Below, in pieces: positions 21,248 to 61,069 of a DNA stretch of 64,000 nt (position 1 is the first letter of the stretch; each line of letters starts with the position of its first letter). Both the position numbers and the translations under genes were made by a program. This DNA comes from a virus (Duplodnaviria > Caudoviricetes). Where the stretch lies: the IMG/VR virus record IMGVR_UViG_3300008262_000013. One strand, written 5' to 3'. The notes beneath the pieces are model-generated. The model saw only the letters and a program-made list of their open reading frames with translations. It made no database searches and had not been told where the DNA came from.

Positions 21248-21606
21248 AAATAATGTCGCTCGACCAAATACTTTTTGCTTGTTCAACAACTATCGTTCTA
21301 GTTGCAATAGTTTATCATCATGCAGGATTTAAAAATATAAAAGACTGTTATAGAATGTGGCTTACGAAAGAATATTGGACAAACTACAATATTGTAGAAT
21401 TCGCCAGTTGGTTTACAAAAGCAATCATTATTATTCCAGGACTCATATTTGGCATTCAAATATGGTGGCTTTATTTTTTCACATTACTTACAAGTTTAAC
21501 TTTGATTTGGGCTAGCAACAAAAAATTACTACCAACATTAGTTGCCTTTAATACCATGTGGTCTTGGTTAAGTTTGATGGTATTGTCACAACATTTGATA
21601 AATTAA
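21244..21606 (+). CDS. Multi-pass membrane protein
   Basis: Several hydrophobic helices. Confidence 0.65.
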   Translation: MKIMSLDQILFACSTTIVLVAIVYHHAGFKNIKDCYRMWLTKEYWTNYNIVEFASWFTKAIIIIPGLIFGIQIWWLYFFTLLTSLTLIWASNKKLLPTLVAFNTMWSWLSLMVLSQHLIN

Positions 21607-21608
21607 AA

Positions 21609-22724
21609 ATGAATCTAACTAAAGAACAAGCTGTTTATTGTGCGAGTGTTTTCTCGGACTACTTTGATCGGTTTTCCAGAATTGATGAGTACATGCGAGA
21701 ACAGAAATTAAATTCAATGGCCGAAAGGCCATTTGTTTTGCCTGGTATGGGACCTGAAGAAGATTTGTTTACAGACTTCAATATGTCTCCTGCTGATATG
21801 GAATTCGAAGTGATGGAATTGCCACAAGAAAGGTGGGACATTTATTTGAATATGATTTCTTCTCATTCAAATATGACTAGTATACCTGGCCGTTGTTTGA
21901 GACTTGCTGTGTTGGAAAAGAAAACAAATAAGTGGGTTGGTTTCATTCGCCTTGGTTCACCAGTGATTAACTGTAAACCGAGAAATGAAATGTTGGGTCA
22001 AGTGTTCACACAAATTGATGGTGGCGCACAGATGTTTAATCGTTGTGCTATTATGGGTTTTGTAATTGTGCCAGCACAGCCATTTGGTTATAATTATCTT
22101 GGTGGTAAGTTGATGGCTGCGATATGTACAACACATGAAGTTCGTGAAATGTTGGACAAGAAATATAATATGACAACTTGTTTATTTGAAACAACAAGTT
22201 TGTATGGCTCTACAAAAGCAGTCTCTCAATATGATGGTATGAAACCACTCATTCGTCATAAAGGTTTAACAGATAGTGATTTTCTTCCGATGTTACATGG
22301 TGAGACATATACTAACCTGAAAGAGTATATCGAAAATATTATTGGTGAACCACTGGCACCAGAAGGTGCATCAAGTCGAAAGTTGAAAATATCAAACGCC
22401 ATGGTATCACTCATTAACGTTTCTCTAAGAGGAACACCAGAAGGTGATAAGTTTAAACGAACGATTGAAAATGCAAAGAATCTGAATGAACAGAAACGAT
22501 ATTATGTTTCAGATTATGGCTTCAGTAATATGGTTGATTATGTTAATGGAAAAACAACTAAACTGGTTGCTGGTGAAAACTATGAGAAGTTTCATCTGGA
22601 GAATGTAATTGAGTGGTGGAGAAAGAAAGCTGTTAATCGTTATGAAACACTAAAGACAGAAAACAGACTCAGAACTGAAATAGAGGTCTGGACAGGCGAA
22701 AAAGAGATTGACATCATTCGGTAA
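21609..22724 (+). CDS. Second DUF4338/DruA-like (GNAT-like) protein
   Basis: PGRCLRLAV..WVGFIRLGSP..FVIVPAQPFGYNYLGGKLMAAIC..FETTSLYG..SQYDG; aligns by eye with 547..1830. Confidence 0.65.
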   Translation: MNLTKEQAVYCASVFSDYFDRFSRIDEYMREQKLNSMAERPFVLPGMGPEEDLFTDFNMSPADMEFEVMELPQERWDIYLNMISSHSNMTSIPGRCLRLAVLEKKTNKWVGFIRLGSPVINCKPRNEMLGQVFTQIDGGAQMFNRCAIMGFVIVPAQPFGYNYLGGKLMAAICTTHEVREMLDKKYNMTTCLFETTSLYGSTKAVSQYDGMKPLIRHKGLTDSDFLPMLHGETYTNLKEYIENIIGEPLAPEGASSRKLKISNAMVSLINVSLRGTPEGDKFKRTIENAKNLNEQKRYYVSDYGFSNMVDYVNGKTTKLVAGENYEKFHLENVIEWWRKKAVNRYETLKTENRLRTEIEVWTGEKEIDIIR

Positions 22725-22733
22725 CCGTGTTAG

Positions 22734-22761
22734 GATAAATACTCCTAAAACTACTAGGAGT
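22734..22761 (+). promoter_or_regulatory. Late promoter (GATAAATA) overlapping an RBS-sequestering hairpin
   Basis: GATAAATA 22734-41; ACTCCTA(22741-47)/TAGGAGT(22755-61) stem contains the AGGAG of the next gene. Confidence 0.7.
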
Positions 22762-22766
22762 ATTAG

Positions 22767-23831
22767 ATGGCTGATGGAATTTCAGGTGCAGGTGCAGAGA
22801 TTACAGCTCTCGCGGAGAGTTTACAAGCTTATGCATGTGCTACGAGACAATTCATTGGTAAACCACTAACCGATGTTACAGAAATAACTAATAAAACAAT
22901 TGGTGATGCTGAGTGTGATAGACCATTGGATAAATGTTTAAAAGGTTTAAATGCAAATTGGTATCACAGTGTCATAACTACAGCCAATGAAATTTTTAAA
23001 GATGTCAAACCTCAAGGTAAATATATGTTTTACCGTGGTGGAAAATTAGTCGGCGACATTTATAAAGAGTTCGGAAAATTTAGAAAAGAAAGTGGTTTAT
23101 CTGGAGATGATAAATGGAATCCTGCTGACATTTGGATGGCAAAAAAAGGATTTAAATTTGAAAAAGACTGGTCAACACTTAGAGACTATAATCGATATAT
23201 CTATGATGAATTTGCACATAAGAATCTAATTGGAATTTCTTTGAAGTTGGTACCAAAAGGTGATGCACATTCTAAAATATTTAATGATGGTAAACCTCTC
23301 ATCGCAGAATGGAATGGGTACAAAATTAGTGATGATATGTTTAGTTCAAAAGACATATATCTGAAATATAAATCAGAAGGTAAAGAAGGTGAAATACAAC
23401 TTAGAAATTTCTCAAGTCGTCCGGTTACAAGTTCTTGGCAAGGAGAAATTAAAGGTAAAACAGCAGCAGGTGGAAAAATTGGTGGTGGCATTGTAATGAC
23501 TGCTGCATTAGAATCTGGGATACCAAGAACTAAACTAATGATACCTTCGTCTTTCGGTACTCATATTGAAAAACCTAATGATAAGATTCTAAAAGAATTT
23601 GCTACAATGTTTAAAGAATTAAGTAAAAGTAAAAAATCAGTAAAAGATTTAATGACTGAAGCTATGATTTGTCAAAAGAAAGATAAGACTTGGTGGATGT
23701 CAAAATTTTTAGGCATACATTATGTTTATACCATTATAAACGAAAAAAAAGAAAATGAAGTTGTTAAATGGTTGTTTGAATATGGATCATCAGCAACTAA
23801 GAACAGTAGTATTTTTATAAAGTATAGCTAA
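22767..23831 (+). CDS. Putative PD-(D/E)xK restriction-endonuclease-fold protein
   Basis: DKWNPADIW....LIGISLK motif spacing; no recognisable family name. Confidence 0.5.
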   Translation: MADGISGAGAEITALAESLQAYACATRQFIGKPLTDVTEITNKTIGDAECDRPLDKCLKGLNANWYHSVITTANEIFKDVKPQGKYMFYRGGKLVGDIYKEFGKFRKESGLSGDDKWNPADIWMAKKGFKFEKDWSTLRDYNRYIYDEFAHKNLIGISLKLVPKGDAHSKIFNDGKPLIAEWNGYKISDDMFSSKDIYLKYKSEGKEGEIQLRNFSSRPVTSSWQGEIKGKTAAGGKIGGGIVMTAALESGIPRTKLMIPSSFGTHIEKPNDKILKEFATMFKELSKSKKSVKDLMTEAMICQKKDKTWWMSKFLGIHYVYTIINEKKENEVVKWLFEYGSSATKNSSIFIKYS

Positions 23832-25063
23832 TGAAATTCTCAGAATATTTAACCGAATCTAAGAAAGAAGGAGCTAACCTTCACTTAGAACATTTAGAAG
23901 ATAATGTATTAAACAGAGGCATAAAAGGTGCAAGAGAGTCAATTGATTTTCTCCGTGCATTGCGTGATATGTTAGCAGGTCATTCTCAATCCAAAGTGAA
24001 TGTTACTACAAAATGGGATGGTGCTCCTGCTGTAATTTGTGGTACTAATCCAGAAAATGGAAAGTTTTTCGTCGGCACAAAATCAGTTTTTAATAAAGAA
24101 GGTAAATTAAATTATACTGATGATGATATTGATAAGAATCATCCTGGTGGAGGACTAAATGAAAAATTAAAAACAGCACTTGCTTTTCTTTCAAAGTTAG
24201 AAATTAAAGGTATATTACAAGGTGACATGTTATTCACTAAAGGTGATATACAAAAACAAAGTATAGACGGCGAATCATATATTACATTTCAGCCTAATAC
24301 AATTGTTTATGCTGTGCCTACTGATTCTGTTATGGCTTCAAAAATGATGGCAGCTCAAATGGGTATCGTGTTTCATACATCGTATTCTGGTAGAACCATG
24401 GATACATTGAAGGCCTCTTTTAATATTGATATTGGTAATTTAAAACAAACTAAAGATGTTTGGTTTAGAGATGCTTCATTTGTTGATGCCTCTGGTACTG
24501 CAACATTTACTGAAACAGAAACTAAGTTAATTACGAATGTTCTATCTCAAGCAGGCAGAGTATTTCAAACAATCAATCCTCTAGTTCTAAATAGAATATC
24601 TTCTTCAGATATTTTAAATACACAAATTAAAACATTTAATAATACGAAAGTCAGAGCAGGTCAAAAAATAACTAACACTCGAACACATGTTACAGAATTG
24701 ATTCGTTGGGTAGAAGATAGGTTGAATAAAGAAATTCTTGCTGCAAAGAAAGAAGATACGAGGAAAAAAAGAATCGCAGAAAAATCTGAACTGATTAGAT
24801 TTTACAGAAGTAGTGCATCTCAACTTGCGGCAATTTTTGACTTAATGAACTTAATTGTAGACGCCAAGATAATGATAGTCAGAAAATTAGAATCTATAAA
24901 ATCTTCAGTAAGTACTTTTGTAAATACTGAAGATGGTTTCAAAGTTACTGGTCCAGAAGGTTTTGTTGCAGTAGATAGATTAAGTGGTGGTGCATTGAAA
25001 CTTATCGATAGAATGGAATTTTCGCAACAAAACTTTAATGCCGCAAAGAATTGGAGTAAATAA
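23831..25063 (+). CDS. DUF6267-like ligase/capping-family nucleotidyltransferase with capsid-targeting-like leader
   Basis: MKFSEYLTE leader; TTKWDGAP (KxDG motif I), QGDMLF, EGFVAV, ALKLIDR. Confidence 0.6.
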   Translation: MKFSEYLTESKKEGANLHLEHLEDNVLNRGIKGARESIDFLRALRDMLAGHSQSKVNVTTKWDGAPAVICGTNPENGKFFVGTKSVFNKEGKLNYTDDDIDKNHPGGGLNEKLKTALAFLSKLEIKGILQGDMLFTKGDIQKQSIDGESYITFQPNTIVYAVPTDSVMASKMMAAQMGIVFHTSYSGRTMDTLKASFNIDIGNLKQTKDVWFRDASFVDASGTATFTETETKLITNVLSQAGRVFQTINPLVLNRISSSDILNTQIKTFNNTKVRAGQKITNTRTHVTELIRWVEDRLNKEILAAKKEDTRKKRIAEKSELIRFYRSSASQLAAIFDLMNLIVDAKIMIVRKLESIKSSVSTFVNTEDGFKVTGPEGFVAVDRLSGGALKLIDRMEFSQQNFNAAKNWSK

Positions 25064-32828: not shown

Positions 32829-32836
32829 TATAAATA
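32829..32836 (+). promoter_or_regulatory. T4-type late promoter
   Basis: Exact TATAAATA in intergenic region. Confidence 0.8.
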
Positions 32837-32876: not shown

Positions 32877-35600
32877 ATGAAATTTAAAGACTTTCTATTA
32901 GAACAGAAAGAAAAACACGCTGTCATGGCTTTCGGCCGTATGAATCCGATTACGAACGGCCATGAAAAAGTAGTCAAGGAAGTCAAAAAAATTGCTAAGC
33001 AATTTGACGCATCCCACCACATCGTACTGTCACATTCTCAAGATCCGAAGAAAAATCCTCTTACAGTACAGCAAAAAATGAAACACGCTAAGCGTGCATT
33101 TCCCGATACAAAATTTGTAGCAGCATCCAGTGAATCTCCCACATTTTTCGAATATGCCGAAAAGTTATACAAACAAGGTGTAACTCATTTTCACATGGTT
33201 GCTGGTTCTGATCGAGCTCTCGAATATTTAAAATTACTCAAAAAATATAATGGTACACATAAGGGTGCTAGATTTAATTTTAAATACATGGGTGTAGAAT
33301 CTGCCGGTGAACGTGACCCAGATGCAGAAGGCGCAGAGGGTATCTCCGCATCAAAGATGCGTGATGCTGCCGCAAAGGGAGATTTCAAAACTTTTAAAAA
33401 AGGCGCACCATCAAAAATGTCAGTTGATCAGGTAAAAGACATGTATAATGATGTGCGTAAAGGTATGAACATTAAAGAAAGCATCAATGAAGAATTCGAA
33501 GAACTTCTCGTTGAAGGTGTACATGATCAAAGTATTTTCAAAGCAGTATTTTTAGCAGGCGGTCCAGGTTCAGGTAAAGATTATGTGTTAAGTAATACAT
33601 TAGATGGCCATGGATTAACAGAAATTAATTCTGATAAAGCTTTAGAGTTCTTAATGGATAAAAAAGGACTTGATAAGAGAATGCCTGAGAATGAAACTGA
33701 AGCGAGAGATATCGTTCGAGGCAAAGCTAAGAGTGTAACTGAATTACGTCAACGTTTAGCATTACAGGGAAGAAACGGTTTAATCATCAATGGTACAGGC
33801 GATGATCCTAAAAAGGTTGCAAAAATTAAATCAAAATTAGAAGAATTGGGTTACGACACCTCAATGATTCTTGTCAATACAAATGATGAAGTGTCTGCAC
33901 AAAGAAACATTGAACGTGGTCAAAGAGGTGGTAGAACTGTACCAGAAACAATTCGTAAAGAAAAATGGGACAATGTTCAAAACGCACGTACAGAATACGC
34001 AAAGATATTTTCTGATCGTTATATGGAGTTTGACAACTCGGAAGATTTGCGACAAGCGCCACCTGATGTGGTTAAAGAAAAGAAAATGGAAATGTTGCAA
34101 CTCTTTAAGAATGTTAAAGAGTTCGTTGCACAACCTCCACAATCTCCTGCTGCTCAAGAATGGGTAGCAAATGAACTTCAACAAAAAGATACATTAAAGC
34201 CGGACACAAAAGGTGCAGAAAAGATTCCACCAAGTGGATCTAGTGCTGCTGATGAAGCTAGAAAGATGGGATTACAATATTATGGATTTGGCCGTTACGG
34301 TAAAAATGGTAAAACTACACACCGTTCAGTGCATGACAAATTAGTACAAGTAACAAACAAAGAACCAGAACAACCAAAATTACCAACACCAGGTTCTTCA
34401 CCAGTTGATAATAAATCTAAAGTCAAAAAAGAATCTATTGATGACGAATTTGAAAATCTTATTTCAGAAGATTTGCGTAAGTGGTTTAGTAAAACTGATC
34501 CAGAAGGTGGTTGGAAAAGAATTAATAGTAAAGGTGAAGCAATTGGTCCTTGCGCTCGTGAACCTGGTGAACCAAAACCAAAATGTATGTCAAACGAAAA
34601 ACGTGCTTCATTGTCCAAGAAAGAACGTGCATCTGCTGTCGCAGCAAAACGTAAACATGATCCTGTTGCAGACAGAGGTGGCAAAGGTGGTAAACCTGTG
34701 AATGTTTCTAATTTTGGAAAAGGAAAACTATCTGAAGCTGTAACAGTTTCGGTTACTGGTGATACAGTTGATGAAGTAAAAGACTTCTTTACTACATTCA
34801 ATAATAATGTAACCCATGAAGAATCATATGCTTTGTCTGATTCAAAGACTGATGCTATAACATTAGGTAAATTTATGCAACCCTTTGGTGAGAAAATGGA
34901 AAATACCATGATCACTAATGAGATGATGCAAGATATGCTTGATGAAAGTCAACATAATTTATTGAAAGATAAACAAGGTAGAGTTAGAGTTTTCATGTTG
35001 CGCTCTGTTGCAGCAAAAGAAGCACATACGAAACAAGGTATCGTTTTGAAACATAAAAATGGTTATGTAATTAAACTAAAAGAGGAGATTGAAAATGTTG
35101 AAGTTTATAAAGGAACTATTCGGAATTGGATTGAAGAATCCAAACAAGCACGGGTTAGAGGGAGCATCGACAGCTCCAAACCAGGACTTCTCACAGAGAG
35201 TAGAACAATACTCAGCACCAGTGGAAGCACCAGTTCAGGAACAAACAGTTCAAGAGAAACCAAAGACGCAAAAGAAGGCACCAGCATCCAAGAAGCCATC
35301 GCCAAAGAAACAAGAAACAAAATCACCCTCTCAGAAATCAGGCAGAGGCAGAAAACCTGGTCAGAAGAACAAATCAACGAAATAGATCGTGGTATTGAAC
35401 CTGGTCTATCAATGGCTGGTGCAGGTGAAAGTATTGGTAGAGATATGGGAGAAAAAATTAAAAAAAGATCCCATAAAGTTACTACAGTAGAAATGACTGG
35501 TGATGAAACAACAGCTTCTATTGGTGATCAAAAAGAAGGTGAGTTAAAAAGAAAAGGTATTAATTTAACGACATTCAAAGCAAAAAGGCCGATAGGATGA
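32877..35600 (+). CDS. Polyprotein: capsid-targeting-like leader, HIGH nucleotidyltransferase, zeta-toxin/PNK-like P-loop kinase, several small modules
   Basis: MKFKDFLLE; FGRMNPITNGH..AGSDR..SASKMR; FLAGGPGSGKD..INSD..RNIERG..RTVP; linkers LLVE, LISE, LSE, LDE, INE. Confidence 0.75.
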   Translation: MKFKDFLLEQKEKHAVMAFGRMNPITNGHEKVVKEVKKIAKQFDASHHIVLSHSQDPKKNPLTVQQKMKHAKRAFPDTKFVAASSESPTFFEYAEKLYKQGVTHFHMVAGSDRALEYLKLLKKYNGTHKGARFNFKYMGVESAGERDPDAEGAEGISASKMRDAAAKGDFKTFKKGAPSKMSVDQVKDMYNDVRKGMNIKESINEEFEELLVEGVHDQSIFKAVFLAGGPGSGKDYVLSNTLDGHGLTEINSDKALEFLMDKKGLDKRMPENETEARDIVRGKAKSVTELRQRLALQGRNGLIINGTGDDPKKVAKIKSKLEELGYDTSMILVNTNDEVSAQRNIERGQRGGRTVPETIRKEKWDNVQNARTEYAKIFSDRYMEFDNSEDLRQAPPDVVKEKKMEMLQLFKNVKEFVAQPPQSPAAQEWVANELQQKDTLKPDTKGAEKIPPSGSSAADEARKMGLQYYGFGRYGKNGKTTHRSVHDKLVQVTNKEPEQPKLPTPGSSPVDNKSKVKKESIDDEFENLISEDLRKWFSKTDPEGGWKRINSKGEAIGPCAREPGEPKPKCMSNEKRASLSKKERASAVAAKRKHDPVADRGGKGGKPVNVSNFGKGKLSEAVTVSVTGDTVDEVKDFFTTFNNNVTHEESYALSDSKTDAITLGKFMQPFGEKMENTMITNEMMQDMLDESQHNLLKDKQGRVRVFMLRSVAAKEAHTKQGIVLKHKNGYVIKLKEEIENVEVYKGTIRNWIEESKQARVRGSIDSSKPGLLTESRTILSTSGSTSSGTNSSRETKDAKEGTSIQEAIAKETRNKITLSEIRQRQKTWSEEQINEIDRGIEPGLSMAGAGESIGRDMGEKIKKRSHKVTTVEMTGDETTASIGDQKEGELKRKGINLTTFKAKRPIG
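35095..35385 (+). CDS. Nested out-of-frame small Lys/Pro-rich protein inside the 907-aa gene
   Basis: GAGGAG 7 nt before ATG 35095; MLKFIKELFG then P/K/Q-rich tail; both frames open. Confidence 0.55.
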   Translation: MLKFIKELFGIGLKNPNKHGLEGASTAPNQDFSQRVEQYSAPVEAPVQEQTVQEKPKTQKKAPASKKPSPKKQETKSPSQKSGRGRKPGQKNKSTK

Positions 35601-36181
35601 AAACATTTAAAGAATTAATGTTAGAGAGATGTTGGCCAGGTCATAAACCTGTACCTGGTAAAAAACCTTATTCACCAGGTTCTTGTGTAAAAGAAGAACA
35701 ACTTGATGAAATGCCTGGTGCTAATATGGACACTAGAGCAGTACATAAGCATCTTAGAAAATCTGGTTGGGAATTAACTAGAACATCCGGTGGTCACGAT
35801 GTGTTTACTCATCCAGAAGCTAAGCATCATATTCCTGTTCCTCGTCACAAGCAATTAAAGGCACCATTAGTTCGTGGTATTCTAAAAGCTGCCAAAATAA
35901 ATGAAGATTTGGAAGAATCTGCCGCATGGCAACGTAAAGAAGGAAAAAATCCTGAAGGTGGATTAAATCGTAAAGGTATTGCTTCTTATCGCCGTGAAAA
36001 TCCTGGTTCAAAATTGTCAATGGCTGTGACTACACCACCATCAAAATTAAAACCAGGAAGTAAAGCAGCGAATCGCCGTAAATCATTTTGCGCTCGTATG
36101 GGTGGTATGCCAGGTCCTATGAAGGATGAAAAAGGTCGTCCAACAAGAAAAGCATTATCTTTGAGAAAGTGGAATTGCTAA
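35597..36181 (+). CDS. Polyprotein: leader, Cys-pair mini-module, HicA-like mRNA interferase, DUF6321-like basic module
   Basis: MKTFKELMLE; HLRKSGWELTRTSGGHDVFTHP..IPVPRH..LVRGILKAA; AAWQRKEGKNPEGGLN..FCARM..RKWNC. Confidence 0.78.
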   Translation: MKTFKELMLERCWPGHKPVPGKKPYSPGSCVKEEQLDEMPGANMDTRAVHKHLRKSGWELTRTSGGHDVFTHPEAKHHIPVPRHKQLKAPLVRGILKAAKINEDLEESAAWQRKEGKNPEGGLNRKGIASYRRENPGSKLSMAVTTPPSKLKPGSKAANRRKSFCARMGGMPGPMKDEKGRPTRKALSLRKWNC

Positions 36182-37492
36182 GTGGCACAATTTAGAACCG
36201 ACTTACACAAGATAGATTCAGGACAAGTATTCACTCGTTATGAAGTGAATATGATGTCTGATCGTCTTACACCATCGGGCACAATGACAGATGCGTTTGG
36301 TCGCCTTCGTCTATCACAACCATTTACTCTTTTTGATAGTTCGCACCGTTTTACTGACAACGGACTGTGGTCAACATCAAATACAGAAGGAAATAGTTCA
36401 TATGCTTTTGTAAACAATCAAAGTATGATTGCGATGACTGTGGGAACTACAGCAAATGCCGAAGTCATTCGTGAGACAACAAGAGTGTTTTCATATCAAC
36501 CAGGTAAGTCTTTGTTGATGATGTCGTCATTTGCTATGGAGACACCTAAAGCAAATGTTCGTCAGAGAGTTGGTTATTATGGTGCTGAGAATGGTATCTA
36601 TCTTGAGAATGATGGAACAGCAAACTATTTTGTGCTGAGAAGTAATACATCAGGGACAATTACAGAAACAAAAGTTACACAAACAGATTGGAATATAGAC
36701 AAGTTTGTCGGCACGGGTTATTCATCTCAAAGTGGTGGTGCTGAACATACTAACGGCATCGATGTAAGTAAAACTAATATTCTTTGGATGGATATTGAAT
36801 GGTTGGGTGTTGGTGATGTTCGTTGTGGATTTGTGGTTGATGGTAAAATGGTTCCTGCTCATATATTTCATAATGATAATAAGAATTTGGTTCCTTATAT
36901 GACAACGGCATCTTTACCGTTGCGTTATGAAATCAAGAACACAGGTATTACAACAAGTAATTCTACATTAAAACAGATTTGTTCAACCGTTATATCTGAA
37001 GGTGGATATGAGTTGCTTGGATCGCAGCAAGCCGTAGGCACACCAGTTACTAGCCCAATTGATTTGGCCGTTGCTGGAACATATTATAATCTCATTTCTT
37101 TGAGATTGAAATCGGATAGATTAGATGCGATTGCCATTATTACTGCACTATCTTTATTAGCATTAACTAACAACTCATATTATAACTGGCAACTCAGGGC
37201 GGGTGGTACAACAACAGGTGGAACATGGGTAAGTGCAGGAGATAATTCGGCTGTTGAATATAAATTAGATGCCGCAACAATTTCAGGTGGAAGAATATTA
37301 GCATCGGGCTTTACAACTTCTACTACACAAAGTTCTATACCAGTGGATATTCTTAGAGAAGCACTATTCAAATTTCAATTAGAAAGAAATGGATTGACCA
37401 ATACACCCTTCGAACTCACATTATGTGTGGCAGCATCAGTTAATGGTTCTGATATATACGCATCGATGGATTGGGAAGAAGTCACAAGATAA
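36182..37492 (+). CDS. Probable virion structural protein (beta-rich)
   Basis: DAFGRLRLSQPFTLFDS, FSYQPGKS, IEWLGVG; Thr/Gly-rich; late region. Confidence 0.55.
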   Translation: MAQFRTDLHKIDSGQVFTRYEVNMMSDRLTPSGTMTDAFGRLRLSQPFTLFDSSHRFTDNGLWSTSNTEGNSSYAFVNNQSMIAMTVGTTANAEVIRETTRVFSYQPGKSLLMMSSFAMETPKANVRQRVGYYGAENGIYLENDGTANYFVLRSNTSGTITETKVTQTDWNIDKFVGTGYSSQSGGAEHTNGIDVSKTNILWMDIEWLGVGDVRCGFVVDGKMVPAHIFHNDNKNLVPYMTTASLPLRYEIKNTGITTSNSTLKQICSTVISEGGYELLGSQQAVGTPVTSPIDLAVAGTYYNLISLRLKSDRLDAIAIITALSLLALTNNSYYNWQLRAGGTTTGGTWVSAGDNSAVEYKLDAATISGGRILASGFTTSTTQSSIPVDILREALFKFQLERNGLTNTPFELTLCVAASVNGSDIYASMDWEEVTR

Positions 37493-37517
37493 CAAAAACT
37501 AAATCAGGAGAACTAAA

Positions 37518-38840
37518 ATGTTTCAAGACAAACTAACAAAAGAAATTGCTGCTGCAGCAGCACAAATTAAAACAGAACCAACTAAAAACGTTGTAAATGG
37601 AAACAGCGTTGAAGGTGCTGTTGTTTCAATTATGGCCAATGAAGAACTTAAAGGTAATCAACACAAGATTGATGCCAATAAGAATGGTAAAGTTGATGCA
37701 CACGACTTTAAACTTCTTCGTAGTAAGAAAAAAGTAGAAGAAGGTGTTAAGGGTGCTGGTGTAGGTGCTGCTCTAGGTTCTGTTGCTGGTGGACCAGTCG
37801 GTGCTGCAATTGGTGGTGCTTTAGGACATGTGGCTGGTGAAGTTCTTTCCAGTGCTAAAAACAAAGCAAAAGCTATGGGTCGTATTGCTGTAGGTCCTTC
37901 AATGGCTGATAGCAAATTAAAAAGAGAAGATGTTGAACAAATCGATGAAGTTGGTGATACATCAGCAGGTAGAAAAATGATTAGTTCATATGTCAACAAA
38001 GCAATTGGTGACAAATCAAAAGACCGTTCAAAAGGTTTACGTAAAGCAACATCACGCCTCTACAAAGACAATTACTATGGTAAAAAGAATGAAGAAGTTG
38101 AAATGAACGAAGAAGATGCTTATAACAAAGACCGTTATGCTGTTAAAGATGGTAAAGCAAAAAAAGATAATCCTACACACATGGGTTCACCTAACTACAA
38201 AGATCAACCACATCATGTTTGGGCAACAAGTGCTGAACATGCATTGAAAAAATCTATGAAGAAAGAAGAAGTTGAACAAATGGACGAAGCTTTTCCAACT
38301 GTAGCAGATGCTAAAAAACGTATGGCTGCCGGTCAAAGTTCTTTCGAGAAAAAGAAAATTTCTACTGGCACAGTTTACTCACGTAAGTACAAAGCAGAAC
38401 CAGATGATGCAGATGATATGCCAAAGAAAAAGGCAAAGACTATGAAAGAGATGTTGGACATTTACAGACAACATGGCGCAGAATCTTTGGTAGAAAATTT
38501 AATGATCGAAGAACCAACGAACGATGAGTATAAAAAAGAAGCTGAAATTGCTCAAGCAAAATCTGAAGGTAAAATTCGCAATGACAAACAGATTGCTAAA
38601 GCAGCATCACAAGGTGTAAAAATGGAAGAAGTTGAACTTGAAATGTATGATGCTGATGAAATCAATGGTGTTCAAATCGATACAATTGATGAGCGTTCAA
38701 TGACTGATGCTGAAATGGACAAACGTGAGAAAATCGTAAAGTCAATGAAAAAAGGCATTCAAGGTTTCAAAGATCGTTATGGTGATGATGCTAAGTCGGT
38801 AATGTATGCTACTGCAACCAAAAACGCGATGAAGGACTAA
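37518..38840 (+). CDS. Internal-protein-like polyprotein with EF-hand-like and glycine-zipper modules
   Basis: IDANKNGKVDAHDF; GAGVGAALGSVAGGPVGAAIGGALG; repeated EEVEx(x)DE linkers. Confidence 0.65.
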   Translation: MFQDKLTKEIAAAAAQIKTEPTKNVVNGNSVEGAVVSIMANEELKGNQHKIDANKNGKVDAHDFKLLRSKKKVEEGVKGAGVGAALGSVAGGPVGAAIGGALGHVAGEVLSSAKNKAKAMGRIAVGPSMADSKLKREDVEQIDEVGDTSAGRKMISSYVNKAIGDKSKDRSKGLRKATSRLYKDNYYGKKNEEVEMNEEDAYNKDRYAVKDGKAKKDNPTHMGSPNYKDQPHHVWATSAEHALKKSMKKEEVEQMDEAFPTVADAKKRMAAGQSSFEKKKISTGTVYSRKYKAEPDDADDMPKKKAKTMKEMLDIYRQHGAESLVENLMIEEPTNDEYKKEAEIAQAKSEGKIRNDKQIAKAASQGVKMEEVELEMYDADEINGVQIDTIDERSMTDAEMDKREKIVKSMKKGIQGFKDRYGDDAKSVMYATATKNAMKD

Positions 38841-38842
38841 CT

Positions 38843-40300
38843 ATGAAAAAGTTTTCGGATGTTTTTAAATCCATTCGATTTGCTAAATTGGACCCTCAAC
38901 ATGATAAACCTGAAATTGGTGGATCAAAAGATGATGAGGAACATTATACTGTTGGCACAAAAGAATGGGATCAACAAGTAAAACATGTAAAGAAAAGAGC
39001 TATGCAAGAAGAAAAGAAAGACAAGTATGATGAGGGTGAATATGACCGTGAAGGTGATATGGCTAAATCCGACTTGCGTTCTATCATTGCGAATGCTAAA
39101 AGATTGCACGATATGATTGAAGATGCTGATAATCTTCCTGAGTGGGTGCAATCTAAAATTACTGTAGCAGAAGATTATATTTCAACCGTTGCGAATTACA
39201 TGACAGCAGAAATGAATGAATCTGTCGCAGATACACATTCTAAATTGCGTAAAAAATCTGGTTTGCCACATCCCGATTACTATAAAGAATTAGGCAAATC
39301 TTATGATATTGAAGATGATAAAGAAAGACTTTCAAAGCAATCTGAAATCAAAAAGAAATACAAAGTCGAATCTTATGTTCCTTCACCACATGCCAAACCT
39401 GTTCCTAAGAAACCAAAAGGTGAATATGAACGTAAGGTTGACAAGTATTTGAAAAAGAAATACAACAAAGAAGAAGTGGAAATAGACGAAGCAGCAAAGT
39501 GGCGTTCAACTTCAGTAGCAAAAAAAGTTACTGATCCTGATGATGAAAGCAGTCGTTCTTATGACTATCATCACGAAAATCCCAGATCAACAGGCATGAA
39601 GCAAGCAACTTCAGATAAGCCATATTCATCGGGCAGTTTGATGACAAGACTTAAAGCACAAGTCGCCTCACAGGGTGCCAGAAAAGGTATGGTTACCAAA
39701 CAACACGCCGCAAGTCTAAAAGATAGAATCAAGTCTGCTATGCGTAAAGAAGAAGTTGAACTTTCTGAAGGTCGCCCATCACAGCGCCATCCATTAGAGG
39801 GTCATGAATATCACAAGAAAACGGATGCTGAATTGATTCACATTGCTAAAGATGCACATGAAGCAGCAGAAGCAATGAAAAGTCACAACACAACCGCAGA
39901 AAACAAATACCGTGACCAAGCAAATGATTCTGCGACAGTGAGATATTTCCGTCAAAAGAGTGGTATGCCTAACTGGTATAAAAAGAAGTACGGACACGTT
40001 AAGGAAGAAATGGAACAGTTAGAAGAAAAGAATGTTCCAACTTCACCTGAAAAGTGGGCTCAGGCCAAAGCACAAGCAAAAGCTAAGTTTGATGTATATC
40101 CATCAGCCTACGCAAATGGTTGGGCTGCAAAGAAATATAAAGAAATGGGTGGTGGTTGGAAATCAGTTAGCGAAGAAACTATTTCAGAATCTCGCAAATC
40201 TGAAATTATCAAAAAGTTAGTTAAGAAAAAAACTAATCCAGACGATAAATTTGAACCAAATCCAGTAATGGTAAAAACCAGAGATGACAGAGATCATTAA
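38843..40300 (+). CDS. Internal-protein-like polyprotein with basic modules (DUF5872-like C-terminal module)
   Basis: Linkers KEEVEIDE, KEEVELSE, KEEMEQLEE, TISE; VYPSAYANGWAAKKYKEMGGGWK. Confidence 0.65.
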   Translation: MKKFSDVFKSIRFAKLDPQHDKPEIGGSKDDEEHYTVGTKEWDQQVKHVKKRAMQEEKKDKYDEGEYDREGDMAKSDLRSIIANAKRLHDMIEDADNLPEWVQSKITVAEDYISTVANYMTAEMNESVADTHSKLRKKSGLPHPDYYKELGKSYDIEDDKERLSKQSEIKKKYKVESYVPSPHAKPVPKKPKGEYERKVDKYLKKKYNKEEVEIDEAAKWRSTSVAKKVTDPDDESSRSYDYHHENPRSTGMKQATSDKPYSSGSLMTRLKAQVASQGARKGMVTKQHAASLKDRIKSAMRKEEVELSEGRPSQRHPLEGHEYHKKTDAELIHIAKDAHEAAEAMKSHNTTAENKYRDQANDSATVRYFRQKSGMPNWYKKKYGHVKEEMEQLEEKNVPTSPEKWAQAKAQAKAKFDVYPSAYANGWAAKKYKEMGGGWKSVSEETISESRKSEIIKKLVKKKTNPDDKFEPNPVMVKTRDDRDH

Positions 40301-45837: not shown

Positions 45838-46202
45838 CAACCTACGTCAACAGTGGTAACTTTGAACAAACAACAATTGATGAATTCTCAGGACCAAAGA
45901 TAACTTCAATTACTGTAACGAACAGTAGTTATGTTGCCACTGGAGCAACAACAATATCTACAAGTGGTGGATATGTACAAATAGTAGGAACAAGTTTTAG
46001 CAGTCCAATGCAGGTGTTTTTGGATCCAACAGGAACAAATAGAATTCAAAGTACAACTGCTGCAACATCAGTAACATATGTGAACTCAACTACAATTAAT
46101 GTACAACTACCAGCAAAAGCCGCAGGAAATTATACTTGTTTTGTTGTAAGAACGTCAGACGGACAATTTGCAACAAAAATTAACGGATTAACATACGCAT
46201 GA
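45834..46202 (+). CDS. Stand-alone IPT/TIG-like domain protein
   Basis: GGYVQIVGTSF..VTYVNSTTINVQLPAKAAGNY; duplicates N-terminus of next gene. Confidence 0.65.
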   Translation: MTTYVNSGNFEQTTIDEFSGPKITSITVTNSSYVATGATTISTSGGYVQIVGTSFSSPMQVFLDPTGTNRIQSTTAATSVTYVNSTTINVQLPAKAAGNYTCFVVRTSDGQFATKINGLTYA

Positions 46203-49200
46203 CACAAAAAATTACATCGGTCAATATTGAAGCAACTACATTAAGTTCATTTACGGGACCAACAATATCCAGTATTGCTATTGCCAATTCAACTTACGTT
46301 TTATTAGATGATACCGCAGTTTCAAATGCTGGTGGTTATGCTGTCATTACAGGAAGTAACTTCACAAGTGGCGCCCAAGTTTTATTTGGTAGTACACCAG
46401 CAACAGCAGTTACTTTTGTTAATTCAACTACATTAAATGTTCAAGTGCCTGAATTGACAGCAGGTAGTTACGTTACCTATGTACAAAATGCGGATGGTTC
46501 TACTGCAATCAGGTTGAATGGTATCACCTCAAGTCCTATACCTGTTTGGGCTACAGGAAGTACATTGACACCTCAAACTGATGGTGTTGCTATTTCTGTT
46601 CAATTATCGGCAACATCTGATTCGAGTGTTGTATATTCTGTAGCTAACGGCAGTTCTTTGCCTTCTGGAACAACATTAGATTCAAATGGTTTGTTTAGTG
46701 GTACGATTTCTGGATTAAGTGGTGATACAACATATAATTTTAGTGTAAATGCAATTGATGCTGAAAATCAAGAAACACTAAGATCATTCAGTGTAACGGT
46801 GGTTTCAGGAGATCCGTTTTTTAAAGATACTGTATTGTTGTTGAATGGTGAAACAAGTAATAATACATGGATTACTGATGTAAGCACAAATAAATTTGCA
46901 CTTACGGTGGCTGGTGATACACGACCAAACGCATTTAGTCCGTATGGAACTGTTCGGAGTAATTATTTTGACGGTACTGGTGATTGGTTATCATTAACAA
47001 GCCAAGCTAATCTAGCATTAGGCACTACAGATTTTACAATAGAATTTTGGGTTTATATAGCATTAAATACGATACCAACTAATATTACATTTTACGATCA
47101 ACGTAACAATACCAATGGATTTTCAGTGGTGCAGCCTGTTATTGAGTTGACTTCGGGTACTGGATATGCATGGTATTCCGAAGCCGCAAATAAGATAACA
47201 ACAGGTACTTCCGTAGTAAGATTAAATGCATGGCAACATGTGGCTGTATCTAGGTCGGGTACTACTACTAGAATGTTTATAGATGGAGTTCAAGCTGGAA
47301 GCAGTTTCACTGATACACTAAATTATCCAGCAGGAAGTCTTAATATAGGTCGAGCAAACGATGGAGTAAGTACTAGGAATCATACTGGATATATCTCCAA
47401 TCTTAGAGTAGTAATAGGAACTGCACTTTACACATCAACTTTTACACCCTCAACTTCACCATTAACAGCAATTACAAACACACGTTTATTAACCTGTCAA
47501 TCTAATCGTTTAATTGATAATAGTACAAATAACTTTACAATTACAAGAAACGGTGATGTATTAGTAAGCAACTTTGGTCCTTTTGTTGAAACAGACACAA
47601 CAACAGGCAGTGGTTATTTTGATGGTACTGGAGATTATATAGATGCACCAAGCAATGTAGCATTTACACTTGGTACATCAGATTTTACAATAGAAGGTTA
47701 TCTATACTTAATTTCAGGAACCACGGGAACACTGTATGATTCAAGAACAGGCTCGACTACAATATCTCCAGTGATATATTTAAACGCCGGAGCGTTAACT
47801 TATTTTGTTGCAGCGAATAGAATTGGTGGACCTACACTAGTTGCTGGACAATGGCATCACATTGCAGTTTCACGAAGTGGAACAAGTACAAAATTGTTTT
47901 TAAATGGAGAACAAGTAGGATTAACATATACTGATACGAATAATTATGTTATAGGTGGCCCAAAAATTGGAGCTGGATATAACAACACTAACCTGTTGAA
48001 CGGTTATATTTCTAATTTAAGAGTATTAAAAGGTACTGCATTATACACATCAAACACTGCGCCACCAACTGCACCATTAACCGCAACAGCGGATACGAGT
48101 TTACTTACATTACAATCACGCATTGGTGAAAACAATAATAGATTTATCGATACTTCTGGTATAAACAGTATTATAACAAGAAGTGGTAATACCTCACAGG
48201 GAACATTTAGTCCGTTTCAGATAGGCGGTTGGAGTAATTTTTTTGATGGTACGGGAGATTACATTTCTACAGCTGATAATGCAGTTTTGAATCCAGGAAC
48301 TCAAGATTTTGTCATGGAAGCATGGGTTTATTTTACAGGTACAACTGGTGCCAATCAAGGTATAAACGGCAAAGGAACTGCGGGCACCAATGGATATTCA
48401 TTCTTTATAACGAACGCTCTAGTCTTAAGTTTCATTTGGAATGGAACGGGCGGAACAACAATTACTGGAGGAACACTCAGTTTAAATACATGGAATCATG
48501 TCGCTGTTGTAAGAAATAATAGCGTAATTCGATTATATTTGAATGGTGTGGGAGCAGGATCTTCTACTGCATGTACAACTGATATAACATCTACCGCTAT
48601 CAAATATATTGGCCAAGCTCGTGGTGCTAATCCTATGTTAGGTTACATAAGTAACTACAGAATGATGAAGGGTTCGCGTCCCTCTGGATATGATGCTACA
48701 TCGTCATCACTTACAGTACCGTCATTACCATTAACTGATGTCGCTAACACTTCAATATTAACTTGTGCTGATAATGCATTTATTGATGATAGTCCAAATA
48801 ATTTTGCGATTACACGTAACGGTGATGCATCGGTGCAACCGTTTAATCCATTTAAAGCACATACAATAGTACCCAATACTCGTAGTGTTTATTTTGATGG
48901 GACAGGGGATTATCTGTCTACCCCAGACAGCACTGCTTTTGATTTTGGTACTGGGTCATTAACTGTAGAAGCGTGGATTTATACTGGTGTAAAAGTTGAT
49001 TATCAAAGTATTGTTGGTTCTTTTGACGGTTCCAGTAATGGGTGGTATTTACACACAAATTCATTAGGAACTATTACATATGGACTAACTCCAAGTGCCC
49101 CATATAATGGAACGATCCAAGTTTGCAACAATGCATGGAATCACATTGCGATGGTTCGTAATGGGTCAAGTGCTTTAGCGTTGTATGTTAATGGGGTGTT

Positions 49201-50710
49201 AGACAGCTCGCAGACTAATAGCACAAATATAAATAATAATGCTGAAGTCAGGGTTGGAAGCCTTAGTGCTGGAGCAACTAGGTTTTTCAATGGGTATATT
49301 TCCGGTGTCCGTGTTGTTAATGGCACGGCTGTTTACACGTCGGCGTTCACACCCCCCACAGCACCACTCACCGCGATTGCAAATACAAGTTTATTGACTT
49401 GTTCCAGTAACACAATCGTAGACTTAAGTACAGCAAATACAGGAAATGTGCCACATACAATTACTATAAATGGCGATGCTCGACCAACCACTGTAAACCC
49501 ATTAGGATTTACAGTAACTAATGTAACAGGAACATCATCTGAATATTCTATCACCAATGAAGGTGGCAGTATGTACTTTGATGGTACAGGAGATTTTTTA
49601 ACCATACCAAGTAACGCAGCATTAAGTTTTGGTACTGCGCCACTTACAGTAGAATGTTGGATTTATCCTACAAGCACTGCTGCTGCAAATAAAATGATTT
49701 TAAATAGATGGAATGGTTCTAATGCTGATTCCTATCAATTATTTTTAAGAAGTAATAATAGAATATGTTGGCAAGTACATACTCAAAATAGTGCTGATGT
49801 AGCCGCACTTGATATTCCTATAAATTCTTGGACACACATAGCTTGGACTAGAGTTGGTACTAGTGGTTACTTGTATGTTAATGGTATTTTAAGAGATACC
49901 GCTACATTCAGTAATTCATCGAATGGAAATGGGATTGCAACTGTGGGTGCTGATCAAAGTGGCACTGCTCCTTTCTTTGGGTATATAAGTGATTTGCGTG
50001 TTACTAGGGGGGTTTCAAGATATACTTCAAACTTTATCCCACCATCAACTCCATTAACACCAGTAGCAAATACTACATTATTACTAAATGGTACTAATGG
50101 TTCTATCATTAATTATAGTAGAAAAAGTAATTTAGAAACTTTTGGTGATGTTAAAATTAGAAATGATGTGGTAAAATATGGAAACACATCGATGTATTTT
50201 GATGGCACAGATGATGCTCTTATCATGCCTTATTCACCAATCTTCAACTTAGGCACAGGACAGTTCACTATAGAATGTTGGGTGAATTTTAGTACTCTTT
50301 CTGGTAATAGACTGATTTTTGACACTTATACTGCAGCTTCCGCTGGTGGAGGATATCAACTTTACTGGAGAGGAACAGGTTCAAGTATTACTTTCTATGC
50401 AAATGGTGTTGTGGTAGCACAAAGTTCATTTACTAGTCATGCAATTGATACTTGGTATCACGTAGCAACAACTAGAGATTCTTCTGGAATCGTTCGTGTT
50501 TTTGTTGATGGTGTAATGTATGCATATGCTTCATATACAGCCACGATAGATATTGCTACAACTGCTCGACCTGGTGTAGGTATTCAAGTTGCAACTTTAA
50601 CTAATGATTTCCATGGATACATAGATGATTTGAGAATTACTAAAGGTTTTTCTAGGTATTCATCGAATACAAGTTTTACGCCACCTACAATAGCATTTTC
50701 AAGAAGATGA
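46199..50710 (+). CDS. Large adhesin/tail-fibre protein: IPT/TIG, Ig-like, six LamG/ConA repeats
   Basis: Six S-x-[YF]-FDGT[GD]D starts each followed by FTIE.W, W.HVAV.R, GYISNLR. Confidence 0.85.
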   Translation: MTQKITSVNIEATTLSSFTGPTISSIAIANSTYVLLDDTAVSNAGGYAVITGSNFTSGAQVLFGSTPATAVTFVNSTTLNVQVPELTAGSYVTYVQNADGSTAIRLNGITSSPIPVWATGSTLTPQTDGVAISVQLSATSDSSVVYSVANGSSLPSGTTLDSNGLFSGTISGLSGDTTYNFSVNAIDAENQETLRSFSVTVVSGDPFFKDTVLLLNGETSNNTWITDVSTNKFALTVAGDTRPNAFSPYGTVRSNYFDGTGDWLSLTSQANLALGTTDFTIEFWVYIALNTIPTNITFYDQRNNTNGFSVVQPVIELTSGTGYAWYSEAANKITTGTSVVRLNAWQHVAVSRSGTTTRMFIDGVQAGSSFTDTLNYPAGSLNIGRANDGVSTRNHTGYISNLRVVIGTALYTSTFTPSTSPLTAITNTRLLTCQSNRLIDNSTNNFTITRNGDVLVSNFGPFVETDTTTGSGYFDGTGDYIDAPSNVAFTLGTSDFTIEGYLYLISGTTGTLYDSRTGSTTISPVIYLNAGALTYFVAANRIGGPTLVAGQWHHIAVSRSGTSTKLFLNGEQVGLTYTDTNNYVIGGPKIGAGYNNTNLLNGYISNLRVLKGTALYTSNTAPPTAPLTATADTSLLTLQSRIGENNNRFIDTSGINSIITRSGNTSQGTFSPFQIGGWSNFFDGTGDYISTADNAVLNPGTQDFVMEAWVYFTGTTGANQGINGKGTAGTNGYSFFITNALVLSFIWNGTGGTTITGGTLSLNTWNHVAVVRNNSVIRLYLNGVGAGSSTACTTDITSTAIKYIGQARGANPMLGYISNYRMMKGSRPSGYDATSSSLTVPSLPLTDVANTSILTCADNAFIDDSPNNFAITRNGDASVQPFNPFKAHTIVPNTRSVYFDGTGDYLSTPDSTAFDFGTGSLTVEAWIYTGVKVDYQSIVGSFDGSSNGWYLHTNSLGTITYGLTPSAPYNGTIQVCNNAWNHIAMVRNGSSALALYVNGVLDSSQTNSTNINNNAEVRVGSLSAGATRFFNGYISGVRVVNGTAVYTSAFTPPTAPLTAIANTSLLTCSSNTIVDLSTANTGNVPHTITINGDARPTTVNPLGFTVTNVTGTSSEYSITNEGGSMYFDGTGDFLTIPSNAALSFGTAPLTVECWIYPTSTAAANKMILNRWNGSNADSYQLFLRSNNRICWQVHTQNSADVAALDIPINSWTHIAWTRVGTSGYLYVNGILRDTATFSNSSNGNGIATVGADQSGTAPFFGYISDLRVTRGVSRYTSNFIPPSTPLTPVANTTLLLNGTNGSIINYSRKSNLETFGDVKIRNDVVKYGNTSMYFDGTDDALIMPYSPIFNLGTGQFTIECWVNFSTLSGNRLIFDTYTAASAGGGYQLYWRGTGSSITFYANGVVVAQSSFTSHAIDTWYHVATTRDSSGIVRVFVDGVMYAYASYTATIDIATTARPGVGIQVATLTNDFHGYIDDLRITKGFSRYSSNTSFTPPTIAFSRR

Positions 50711-58156: not shown

Positions 58157-58228
58157 TCCCGTTTAAGGATCATGATTTCATAGATAAGTGTGATATTGTG
58201 CAAAGGCACAATTCTTATAGGAGAAATC

Positions 58229-59251
58229 ATGAGAAAGTTACTTTTATCTTTATTGTTATTTACAGGAGTCGCATCCGCAGCAGAATTAACTGGCGCTGGT
58301 GCGACTTTTCCATTTCCAATCTATGCTAAGTGGGCAGAAGCATATAAAGCATCCACTGGCATTGGTCTGAATTATCAATCAATCGGTTCTGGTGGTGGTA
58401 TCAAACAAATCAAAGCAAAAACAGTTGACTTTGGTGCAAGTGATATGCCATTGAAGCCTGAAGAATTAGACAAAGAAGGTCTAGTGCAATTTCCAGCAGT
58501 AATTGGCGGTGTAGTACCAGTATTCAATCTTGACGGTGTAGCAGCAGGTCAATTAAAATTAACACCAGAAGTTATTGCAAACATTCATCTTGGTAAAATC
58601 ACAAAGTGGAACGATAAAGCAATTGTTGATTTGAATCCTGGCGTCAATCTACCAGCATTAGCAATCACAGTTGTTCATCGTGCAGATGGTTCAGGCACTA
58701 CATTTATTTGGACAAACTTTTTAGGTAAAGCAAACGCTGATTTTGCAAAAACTGTTGGCGAAGGCACAGCAGTAAAATGGCCAGTTGGTGTAGGTGGTAA
58801 AGGTAATGAAGGTGTTGCTGTTCAAGTACAAAGAATCAAAGGTGCATTTGGCTATGTAGAATATGCATATGCAAAAAGAAATAAAATTGCACACGCACAA
58901 TTAAAAAATCGTGATGGTGTTTTTGTACAACCAAGTGACGATTCATTCAAAGCCGCAGCAGCAAACGCAGATTGGGCTAATGCACCAGGAATGTATTTGT
59001 TGCTCACATGGCAAACAGGTAAAGAAGCATGGCCAGCAACAGGCGCAAGTTTCATTCTCATGCACAAACAACAAGCAGATAGTTTGACAGGTCGTGCAGT
59101 TTTGAAATTCTTTGATTGGAGTTGGAAGAATGGTGCCAAGATGAGTGAAGAACTAGAATATGTTCATTTACCACAATCAGTTATTAAATTAAATCAGGAC
59201 AATTGGAAAAAAGACTTAAAAGGTCCTGACAACAACCCAATTTGGAAATAA
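58229..59251 (+). CDS. pstS: Phosphate-binding protein PstS
   Basis: Signal peptide; GAGATFP, NYQSIGSGGG, FGASD, HRADGSGTT, GKGNEGV. Confidence 0.97.
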   Translation: MRKLLLSLLLFTGVASAAELTGAGATFPFPIYAKWAEAYKASTGIGLNYQSIGSGGGIKQIKAKTVDFGASDMPLKPEELDKEGLVQFPAVIGGVVPVFNLDGVAAGQLKLTPEVIANIHLGKITKWNDKAIVDLNPGVNLPALAITVVHRADGSGTTFIWTNFLGKANADFAKTVGEGTAVKWPVGVGGKGNEGVAVQVQRIKGAFGYVEYAYAKRNKIAHAQLKNRDGVFVQPSDDSFKAAAANADWANAPGMYLLLTWQTGKEAWPATGASFILMHKQQADSLTGRAVLKFFDWSWKNGAKMSEELEYVHLPQSVIKLNQDNWKKDLKGPDNNPIWK

Positions 59252-59260
59252 GGATAAATT

Positions 59261-60667: not shown

Positions 60668-60684
60668 AATTTTTTTGTTATATT

Positions 60685-60710
60685 AAAAGCCTCGTAAGAG
60701 GCTTTTTTTT
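60685..60710 (+). terminator. Intrinsic terminator
   Basis: AAAAGCCTC-GTAA-GAGGC followed by T8. Confidence 0.88.
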
Positions 60711-60739
60711 CGTCTAAATAAAGATCGAAGGAGAAATCT

Positions 60740-61060: not shown

Positions 61061-61069
61061 GGAGAAAGA

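Follow-up and report, generated by a model that had tools for sequence, protein, structure and literature searches.

HicA is a bacterial toxin that is restrained by HicB and is mostly discussed as a means of anti-phage defence. Here we describe a HicA domain that stands on the phage side, free of an antitoxin, in a protein whose architecture points to delivery within the virion. The domain lies in a 64,000-nucleotide (nt) stretch of viral DNA, IMG/VR record IMGVR_UViG_3300008262_000013 (this whole stretch is hereafter called the window), in which positions 35726-35896 on the plus strand encode residues 44-100 of a 194-amino-acid (aa) open reading frame (ORF), P0002. The source phage is an aquatic T4-like myovirus, and the window encodes a gp43-type polymerase, UvsX, a gp41-type helicase, a primase, and a ribonucleotide reductase. 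From the N-terminus onward, P0002 consists of a leader, a module with two Cys residues, the HicA domain, and a C-terminal DUF6321 domain, with a short acidic linker on each side of HicA (Table 1). The identical protein is recorded in 96 blocks of the collection, from many metagenome assemblies with contigs of up to ~215 kb. A search of the phage collection for near-identical DNA returned no DNA-level relatives among sequenced phages, and an exact 39-mer search in viral contigs gave no match.

A complete HicA domain in a modular protein

The Pfam profile HicA_toxin (PF07927) matched residues 47-101 of P0002 with an E value of 4.1e-12 and a score of 46.4 bits against a gathering score of 27. The match spans profile positions 2-58 of 58, so that the domain is complete. 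An AlphaFold2 model of P0002, made from 32 family members, showed an alpha-beta-beta-beta-alpha order over residues 44-100 (helices 46-55 and 89-98; strands 59-64, 67-71, and 78-82), with a predicted local distance difference test score of 74-85 for residues 41-100. In Foldseek, this part superimposed on Burkholderia pseudomallei HicA (6g26) with a template modelling score of 0.85-0.87 and a root-mean-square deviation of 1.0-1.1 Å. When compared by VIA-align with four solved representatives of the HicA family, the model gave Z scores of 10.9 (6g26), 10.2 (5yrz), 10.2 (1whz), and 9.5 (4p78), whereas the next unrelated row stood at 5.1. A phmmer alignment to 4c26, an H24A mutant, placed the His of the SGGH motif (His67) at the mutated position 24 and Gly65 at Gly22; in B. 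pseudomallei HicA, both His24 and Gly22 are required for toxicity, and their mutation abolishes it (PMC3969222). These results show that the HicA domain is intact, with the fold and the key residues present, and bear out the claim of an earlier sequence-only reading that P0002 holds a complete HicA-like domain with the catalytic His kept. Given this fold and these residues, the domain is predicted to be active as an RNase. A weak phmmer match to the thioredoxin-binding loop of T7 DNA polymerase (E 0.05) was taken as chance.

The same reading had noted that no HicB is visible in the window, and this held: the Pfam matches of the genes called in the window included no HicB family, and the HicB profile PF15919 found no match in five related viral records, three of which are at least 94% complete. 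At the locus, Pfam gave no adjacent or fused cognate HicB, and the gene that follows P0002 is of a virion protein family. None of the longer proteins carrying the domain has a HicB Pfam domain; these carriers show PF07927 only. HicA is absent from near-complete relatives that have the same gene arrangement and is therefore an accessory element. The description of this HicA as an orphan is correct for this phage but does not extend to the domain with its flanking start (residues 39-100, hereafter the cassette), which is not rare and forms a widespread clade of its own, as described below.

The proteins of the P0002 family share the N-terminus, the two-Cys module, and DUF6321, and have between them nothing, HicA, or unrelated inserts. 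Over the common parts, alleles without HicA (120-127 aa) share 88-95% identity with P0002, and those of 126-127 aa share 91-95%. The alleles differ from P0002 by a clean in-frame block consisting of the cassette and one linker copy. In the minimal members of the family, the leader is fused straight to DUF6321. One relative (L003) has the order leader, HicA, Cys module, DUF6321, which means that the order of the modules can be permuted. The HicA slot of DUF6321 proteins is also filled by other inserts in relatives L003 (5944-6591), L010 (3116-3688), and L030 (3038-3601), and DUF6321 forms of 163 aa have an acidic module of ~35 residues ("MFDIIEELV...PEVIWED") in this slot. The constant end piece of the family, DUF6321, was matched by Pfam PF19846 over residues 116-192 with a score of 82.6 bits (cut-off 28.5). 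It is strongly basic, with 22 Lys/Arg in 87 residues and an isoelectric point (pI) of 11.3, and it is virus-only, its Atlas clusters being 100% viral. No paper containing the term DUF6321 was found. The parts of the model other than HicA, including DUF6321, gave only weak helical matches in VIA-align (Z 3.3-3.7, with the whole model as the query).

The cassette is found far beyond this family, in at least 347 clusters of longer proteins (341-825 aa), where it occurs at any position with 73-91% identity. Among the 120 carriers listed, all retain the GxxH motif, and the eight residues before the cassette are EEVEQLDE in 52, nearly all others ending in LDE or LEE; after the cassette, carriers show (I/V)-(N/R)-E. 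Across carriers, which differ from one another in their other parts, the cassette has a median identity of 72%. When 1.84 billion representatives of clusters at 50% identity were searched, 95 clusters had E<=1e-10, and 94 of these were examined: the protein has a length of at least 120 aa in 89, GxxH is retained in 92, and [LIVM]-x-E stands directly before the cassette in 88. Ordinary stand-alone HicAs (58-90 aa) are only 38-51% identical to it. By these comparisons, the cassette is a separate HicA clade that is widespread in metagenomes. At the junction between the first linker and the cassette, E-M-P-G is at least 98% conserved among 98 distinct cassette sequences, and a few proteins begin exactly at the conserved Met, which looks like the relic start codon of a formerly free-standing gene.

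Elsewhere, the cassette sits in proteins resembling d3, a modular protein encoded downstream of P0002 and the commonest type of carrier (for example, in L039 and L022), or in homologues of the 907-aa protein encoded upstream. Two of the latter, P0269 (865 aa) and P0282 (249 aa), have it just before the conserved "TGDETTASIG" tail. Its presence in both d3-type and 907-aa-type proteins indicates that the cassette moves among genes of the same late block. The linker before HicA belongs to a repeat family at the DNA level, D3, and the cassette is likely transferred by recombination between such repeated linkers.

Leader, linkers, and the proposed delivery in the phage head

The first ten residues of P0002, MKTFKELMLE, match the capsid targeting sequences of the T4 internal proteins. 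In the T4 record, IPI starts with MKTFKEF and IPII and IPIII start with MKTYQEFIAE, and the T4 leaders end in I-A-E and I-T-E. In these leaders, positions 4 and 7 serve targeting, and positions 8 and 10 direct processing by gp21 (PMC9026906). The motif M[KR]x[FYLW]xx[FLIMVYH][ILMV]xE was fitted by 110 of 120 representatives of the P0002 family; among these 120, position 4 was F, L, or Y in 118, position 7 was F, Y, H, or L in 119, position 8 was I, L, V, or M in 114, and position 10 was E in 114. The conserved leader positions are those to which T4 genetics assigns targeting and processing. A strict scan of the window with the leader motif matched the P0002 ORF only, and two looser leaders that are one residue shorter, MKFKDFLLE and MKFSEYLTE, were found by eye.

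T4-type prohead proteases cleave after Glu (PMC5694885). The flanks EEQLDE and INEDLEE, which the sequence-only reading had described as cleavage linkers, are present at residues 33-38 and 101-107. In 28 small HicA proteins, [LIVM]-x-E sites numbered 0 in the HicA core and 0 in DUF6321, compared with a mean of 4.6 in the ~50 leader and linker residues of the same proteins. The last Glu before DUF6321 is in an [LIVM]-x-E context in 107 of 119 longer family members, and in the minimal members, the x-E site of the leader abuts SAAW, the start of DUF6321. With an x-E in the minimal members and [LIVM]-x-E in the longer ones at the same spot, DUF6321 always begins at a candidate cut site.

The gene for P0002 lies in a block downstream of TATAAATA, a T4-type late-promoter motif that precedes the 907-aa ORF. 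In the 64 kb, this motif matched only 2 times, whereas shuffles gave an expectation of 7.3; such a strong depletion would follow if the motif served the phage as a late promoter and stray copies were avoided. NATAAATA is also present ahead of the starts at 22767 and 40339, at a distance of 32-47 nt, and so brackets the block 32877-40300, of which the copy of TATAAATA at its head is likely the promoter. This setting, with a gene of a virion structural protein family directly after P0002, would suit late expression alongside structural genes.

Published proteomics of purified virions of cyanophage S-SM1 detected T4-GC119 (SSM1_115) with 13 peptide counts, as well as the cytidylyltransferase T4-GC190 (SSM1_190) (PMC3037559). 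In our alignment, the Cys module and DUF6321 form the C-terminal end of the T4-GC119 proteins from S-SM1 and P-SSM2, and the N-terminus of SSM1_190 reads MKKFSAFLNE. Peptidase_S77, the domain of gp21-type prohead proteases, was found in two related near-complete genomes with the same gene arrangement (E 4e-34 and 4e-36). Like the T4 internal proteins (pI 8.9-9.5), the pieces that would be freed from P0002 are predicted to be basic (HicA pI 10.7; DUF6321 pI 11.3).

Taken together, we put the probability that P0002 is a head-packaged, protease-released, and injected RNase cargo at about 60%. P0002 would be an internal head protein in the manner of T4, with the leader, the Cys module, HicA, and DUF6321 strung together like beads and an [LIVM]-x-E site of the kind used by T4-type prohead proteases after the leader and after each internal module. 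Late transcription from TATAAATA would cover P0002 along with the enzyme fusion before it and the virion proteins after it. The leader would carry the precursor into the prohead core, where a gp21-like protease would cut off the leader and cleave the linkers. This would free a HicA module of ~7.3 kDa and a DUF6321 peptide of ~9.6 kDa in the DNA-filled head, and both pieces would exit the head along with the DNA. Once in the next cell, HicA would cleave host RNA at the onset of infection, leading to host takeover or a blunted defence; what RNA the injected HicA would act on is a guess. No antitoxin would be needed, since the producer cell is already doomed. For packaging, this proposal draws on the leader and on the virion proteomics of distant homologues, and for cleavage at the linkers, on the logic of the sites and the same proteomics. 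The idea that HicA sits between protease-type linkers in a head-destined protein came from the sequence-only reading and now gains independent support from the leader, the placement of the sites, the cassette, the promoter, and the distant virion relatives. Overall, the observations of that reading were confirmed, and its interpretation found support in the structural part only (a linker-bound HicA in a head-destined protein), as opposed to its functional parts, namely latency through fusion, a shut-off of host mRNA by injected HicA, and the titration or triggering of host HicB.

Several points weigh against this proposal. Position P3 of the leader is Met, and not Ile or Leu. The [LIVM]-x-E motif is short, Glu-rich linkers increase its chance frequency, and the linkers could be mainly recombination joints. 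The homologues seen in virions are distant: SSM1_115 aligns with P0002 only via DUF6321 and the short Cys module and is without the leader, starting with MPLVNQ. In phage Syn9, the homologue of T4-GC119 was not detected (PMC3037559). A gene for a prohead protease was not found in the 64-kb window. A free non-specific RNase would also threaten the early transcripts of the phage itself, and no feature protecting phage early RNA was identified.

Should P0002 not be packaged, it may be a late cytoplasmic RNase that degrades host RNA or processes phage RNA in the producer cell, its N-terminus and acidic linkers then being family features without a targeting or cleavage role. The intact HicA and a plausible late expression would suit such a protein, the virion detections concern relatives and not P0002 itself, and T4 has, by its annotation, a non-packaged endoribonuclease, RegB. 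We nevertheless consider a cytoplasmic role unlikely, as it leaves unexplained the match to T4 targeting that 110 of 120 family members show at exactly the mapped positions, the confinement of [LIVM]-x-E to module borders, and the relatives of DUF6321 and of the cytidylyltransferase in virions. Packaging without catalysis, in which HicA is a nucleic-acid-binding module with a fold like that of double-stranded RNA-binding domains that serves, for example, to neutralise the charge of the packed DNA, appears quite improbable. The basic pI of the released piece, similar to those of T4 internal proteins, and its interchangeability with unrelated inserts or none would fit this role; however, the catalytic His and Gly are kept in 92 of 94 of the most similar cluster representatives, and a median cassette identity of 72% across differing carriers exceeds the needs of charge alone.

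HicA may also act as an anti-defence decoy or trigger that binds HicB-type antitoxins of the host or another host sensor instead of cutting bulk RNA, an alternative that the sequence-only reading had raised. There is general precedent for this in phages that carry antitoxin or toxin mimics (reviewed in PMC11594946), and the phage itself is without HicB, but no observation points to HicB binding, and a cassette that is only 38-51% identical to stand-alone HicAs mimics no particular host toxin; we regard this role as very unlikely. We give still less credence to a switch protein of the fused toxin-antitoxin kind, resembling fused HicAB or CapRel, that would serve, for instance, in superinfection exclusion and whose HicA would be inhibited in cis by an adjoining module, perhaps DUF6321. 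Genes for HicA-HicB fusions do exist (classes 11-13; PMC10865869), and the proposal of the sequence-only reading that fusion keeps HicA latent until head maturation requires some such inhibition. Against this, HicA has no constant partner and stands beside DUF6321, d3-type modules, or tails of the 907-aa type (P0003) in different phages, no carrier has a HicB Pfam domain, and the DUF6321 part gave weak helical matches only. The AlphaFold2 model (predicted template modelling score 0.35) contained no confident interdomain packing and no sign of cis-inhibition of HicA and gave the idea of latency no support.

The putative late block and its genomic surroundings

Table 1 Features of P0002 and of the putative late block in the window.
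Feature	Position	Strand	Description
TATAAATA	32829..32836	+	T4-type late-promoter motif, 41 nt before the ATG of the 907-aa ORF
907-aa ORF P0003	32877..35600	+	Leader MKFKDFLLE, cytidylyltransferase-like domain, Zeta-toxin-like P-loop kinase, further small modules
194-aa ORF P0002	35597-36181	+	Leader, Cys module, HicA, DUF6321
Leader MKTFKELMLE	35597..35626	+	Residues 1-10; T4-type capsid targeting sequence (by similarity) ending in M-L-E
Two-Cys module (CWPGH...GSC)	35627..35692	+	Residues 11-32; common to cyanophage T4-GC119 proteins
Linker 1, EEQLDE	35693..35710	+	Residues 33-38; L-D-E immediately before Met39
HicA cassette	35711..35896	+	Residues 39-100; Pfam, alignment, and structure match
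Gly65 codon	35789-35791	+	
His67 codon	35795-35797	+	Numbering of the His by our own count
Linker 2, INEDLEE	35897..35917	+	Residues 101-107; contains I-N-E and L-E-E
DUF6321	35918..36178	+	Residues 108-194; basic C-terminal domain, conserved end piece of the family
Virion structural protein gene	36182..37492	+	phrog_1645 (PHROG E 5.8e-132); directly after the P0002 stop codon
d2	37518-38840	+	Modular protein with several EEVE(Q)[ILM][DE]E linkers
d3	38843-40300	+	Modular protein with several EEVE(Q)[ILM][DE]E linkers

The picture given by the sequence-only reading is corrected in one respect: HicA is not part of a giant polyprotein here but lies in the separate ORF P0002, the start of which overlaps the stop of the upstream 907-aa ORF, P0003, as ATGA. 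This overlap is kept in seven of eight relatives, the layout of two ORFs (907 aa and 194 aa) was seen in independent metagenome assemblies, and PHROG families 727 and 3477 span both ORFs collinearly. A run of five A residues lies at 35582-35586, in a 35-nt stretch where the frames of both ORFs are open, and a -1 shift there would fuse them. Such a frameshift, or a sequencing error joining the ORFs, is unnecessary in view of the independent assemblies and the conserved ATGA, and is also disfavoured because the second ORF always begins with its own leader.

The domains of P0003 were assigned from Pfam and PHROG matches, and its residues 17-205 are 41% identical to the S-SM1 virion protein SSM1_190; P0003 may itself be a head-delivered enzyme fusion. 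It also contains a "W..GGW..C..PKC" module that is common to cyanophage T4-GC119 proteins; the two-Cys module of P0002 also occurs in SSM1_115, as seen in the alignment. Downstream, d2 and d3 contain EEVE(Q)[ILM][DE]E linkers, six in all, which are the top DNA direct-repeat families of the block, D1 and D2.

Outside the block, the looser leader MKFSEYLTE is the start of a DUF6267 protein of 410 aa (23831-25063), homologues of which are fused to a cytidylyltransferase in PHROG family 455. A GATAAATA motif lies at 22734-22741, 32 nt before the start at 22767 of the gene preceding the DUF6267 gene. The phage is of a lytic type, and two genes of the window (547-1830 and 21558-22724) match the Druantia DruA family (Pfam PF14236), a family of defence-system proteins. 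A run of host-like genes at 58190-61519 encodes a PstS-type phosphate-binding protein, a phosphate-selective porin (Porin_O_P), an Fe-S assembly protein, and a staphylococcal-nuclease-like protein whose start resembles a signal peptide. A protein of 1503 aa encoded at 46199-50710 has ~6 repeats of the Laminin_G_3 type, and its PHROG matches are baseplate wedge or virion structural families.

Relation to known systems and significance

The closest counterparts of P0002 in its proposed role are the T4 internal proteins IPI, IPII, and IPIII (and Alt). The ten-residue leader is nearly identical, with MKTFKE as at the start of IPI and an x-x-E end as in IPII and IPIII, and the proteins of both groups are small and basic, belong to T4-like phages, place a variable and fast-changing cargo behind a constant leader, and are expected to be cleaved after Glu. 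We know of no RNase or toxin of a toxin-antitoxin system among the cargo of the T4 internal proteins. Unlike these proteins, P0002, which is known from its sequence alone, strings several modules together via internal linkers and has a constant C-terminal DUF6321. The giant phages phiKZ and SPN3US deliver head proteins to the cell that are cut after Glu by a T4-related prohead protease (PMC5694885); the sites there are A/S/G-x-E and the propeptides are long, whereas P0002 has [LIVM]-x-E and a ten-residue leader, as T4 does.

With the HicAB toxins (PF07927; 6g26, 4p78, 5yrz, and 6hpb), P0002 shares the fold, the size, the Gly-x-His loop, and the PRH...LKxPL...ILK segment. It differs from type II HicAB modules in having no HicB and no bicistronic arrangement, in the embedding of the domain behind a Glu-ending linker, in its origin from a lytic T4-like phage, and in belonging to a clade that is only distantly related to stand-alone HicAs (38-51% identity). 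Gerdes compiled 14 genetic contexts of HicA in 2024, in which it is bicistronic, fused to HicB, linked to viperin, or fused to SMC (PMC10865869); the arrangement in P0002 matches none of the 14. A review of HicAB from the same year covers only HicAB pairs in temperate phages (PMC11594946).

In polyvalent and MuF-fused toxins, effector domains are joined in one polypeptide that is predicted to enter the recipient with the DNA, and the survey of Iyer et al. (2017) describing them does not mention HicA (PMC5512222). Zeta-toxin-like kinases occur both there and in the 907-aa ORF upstream of P0002, but P0002 has no MuF domain, and targeting by a T4-type leader and release by a prohead protease at short linkers are proposed instead. 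For an injected HicA, the nearest functional analogue would be T4 RegB, a phage RNase that acts early on mRNA; RegB is unrelated to HicA, is made after infection, and is not packaged.

The view of HicA as cargo and the grammar of leader, linker, cassette, and DUF6321 are new here and unreported in the searchable literature. Extending the proposal beyond P0002, we suggest tentatively, at somewhat less than even odds, that HicA cassettes are widespread virion-delivered RNase effectors of aquatic T4-like phages, which are stripped of their antitoxin, set between prohead-protease sites, exchanged among capsid-targeted carrier proteins through recombination at the linkers, and fire early against host mRNA, transfer-messenger RNA, or RNA-dependent defences. 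If this is true, P0002 would represent a fifteenth genetic context for HicA and, to our knowledge, the first type II toxin domain shown to be an injected phage weapon. An RNase would be added to the effectors that phages package, and the unannotated, virus-only DUF6321 would acquire a role as a basic protein inside the head. The T4 internal-protein system would then be a general cargo platform in environmental phages, and the grammar of leader, linker, cassette, and end piece would allow injected effectors to be predicted from sequence.

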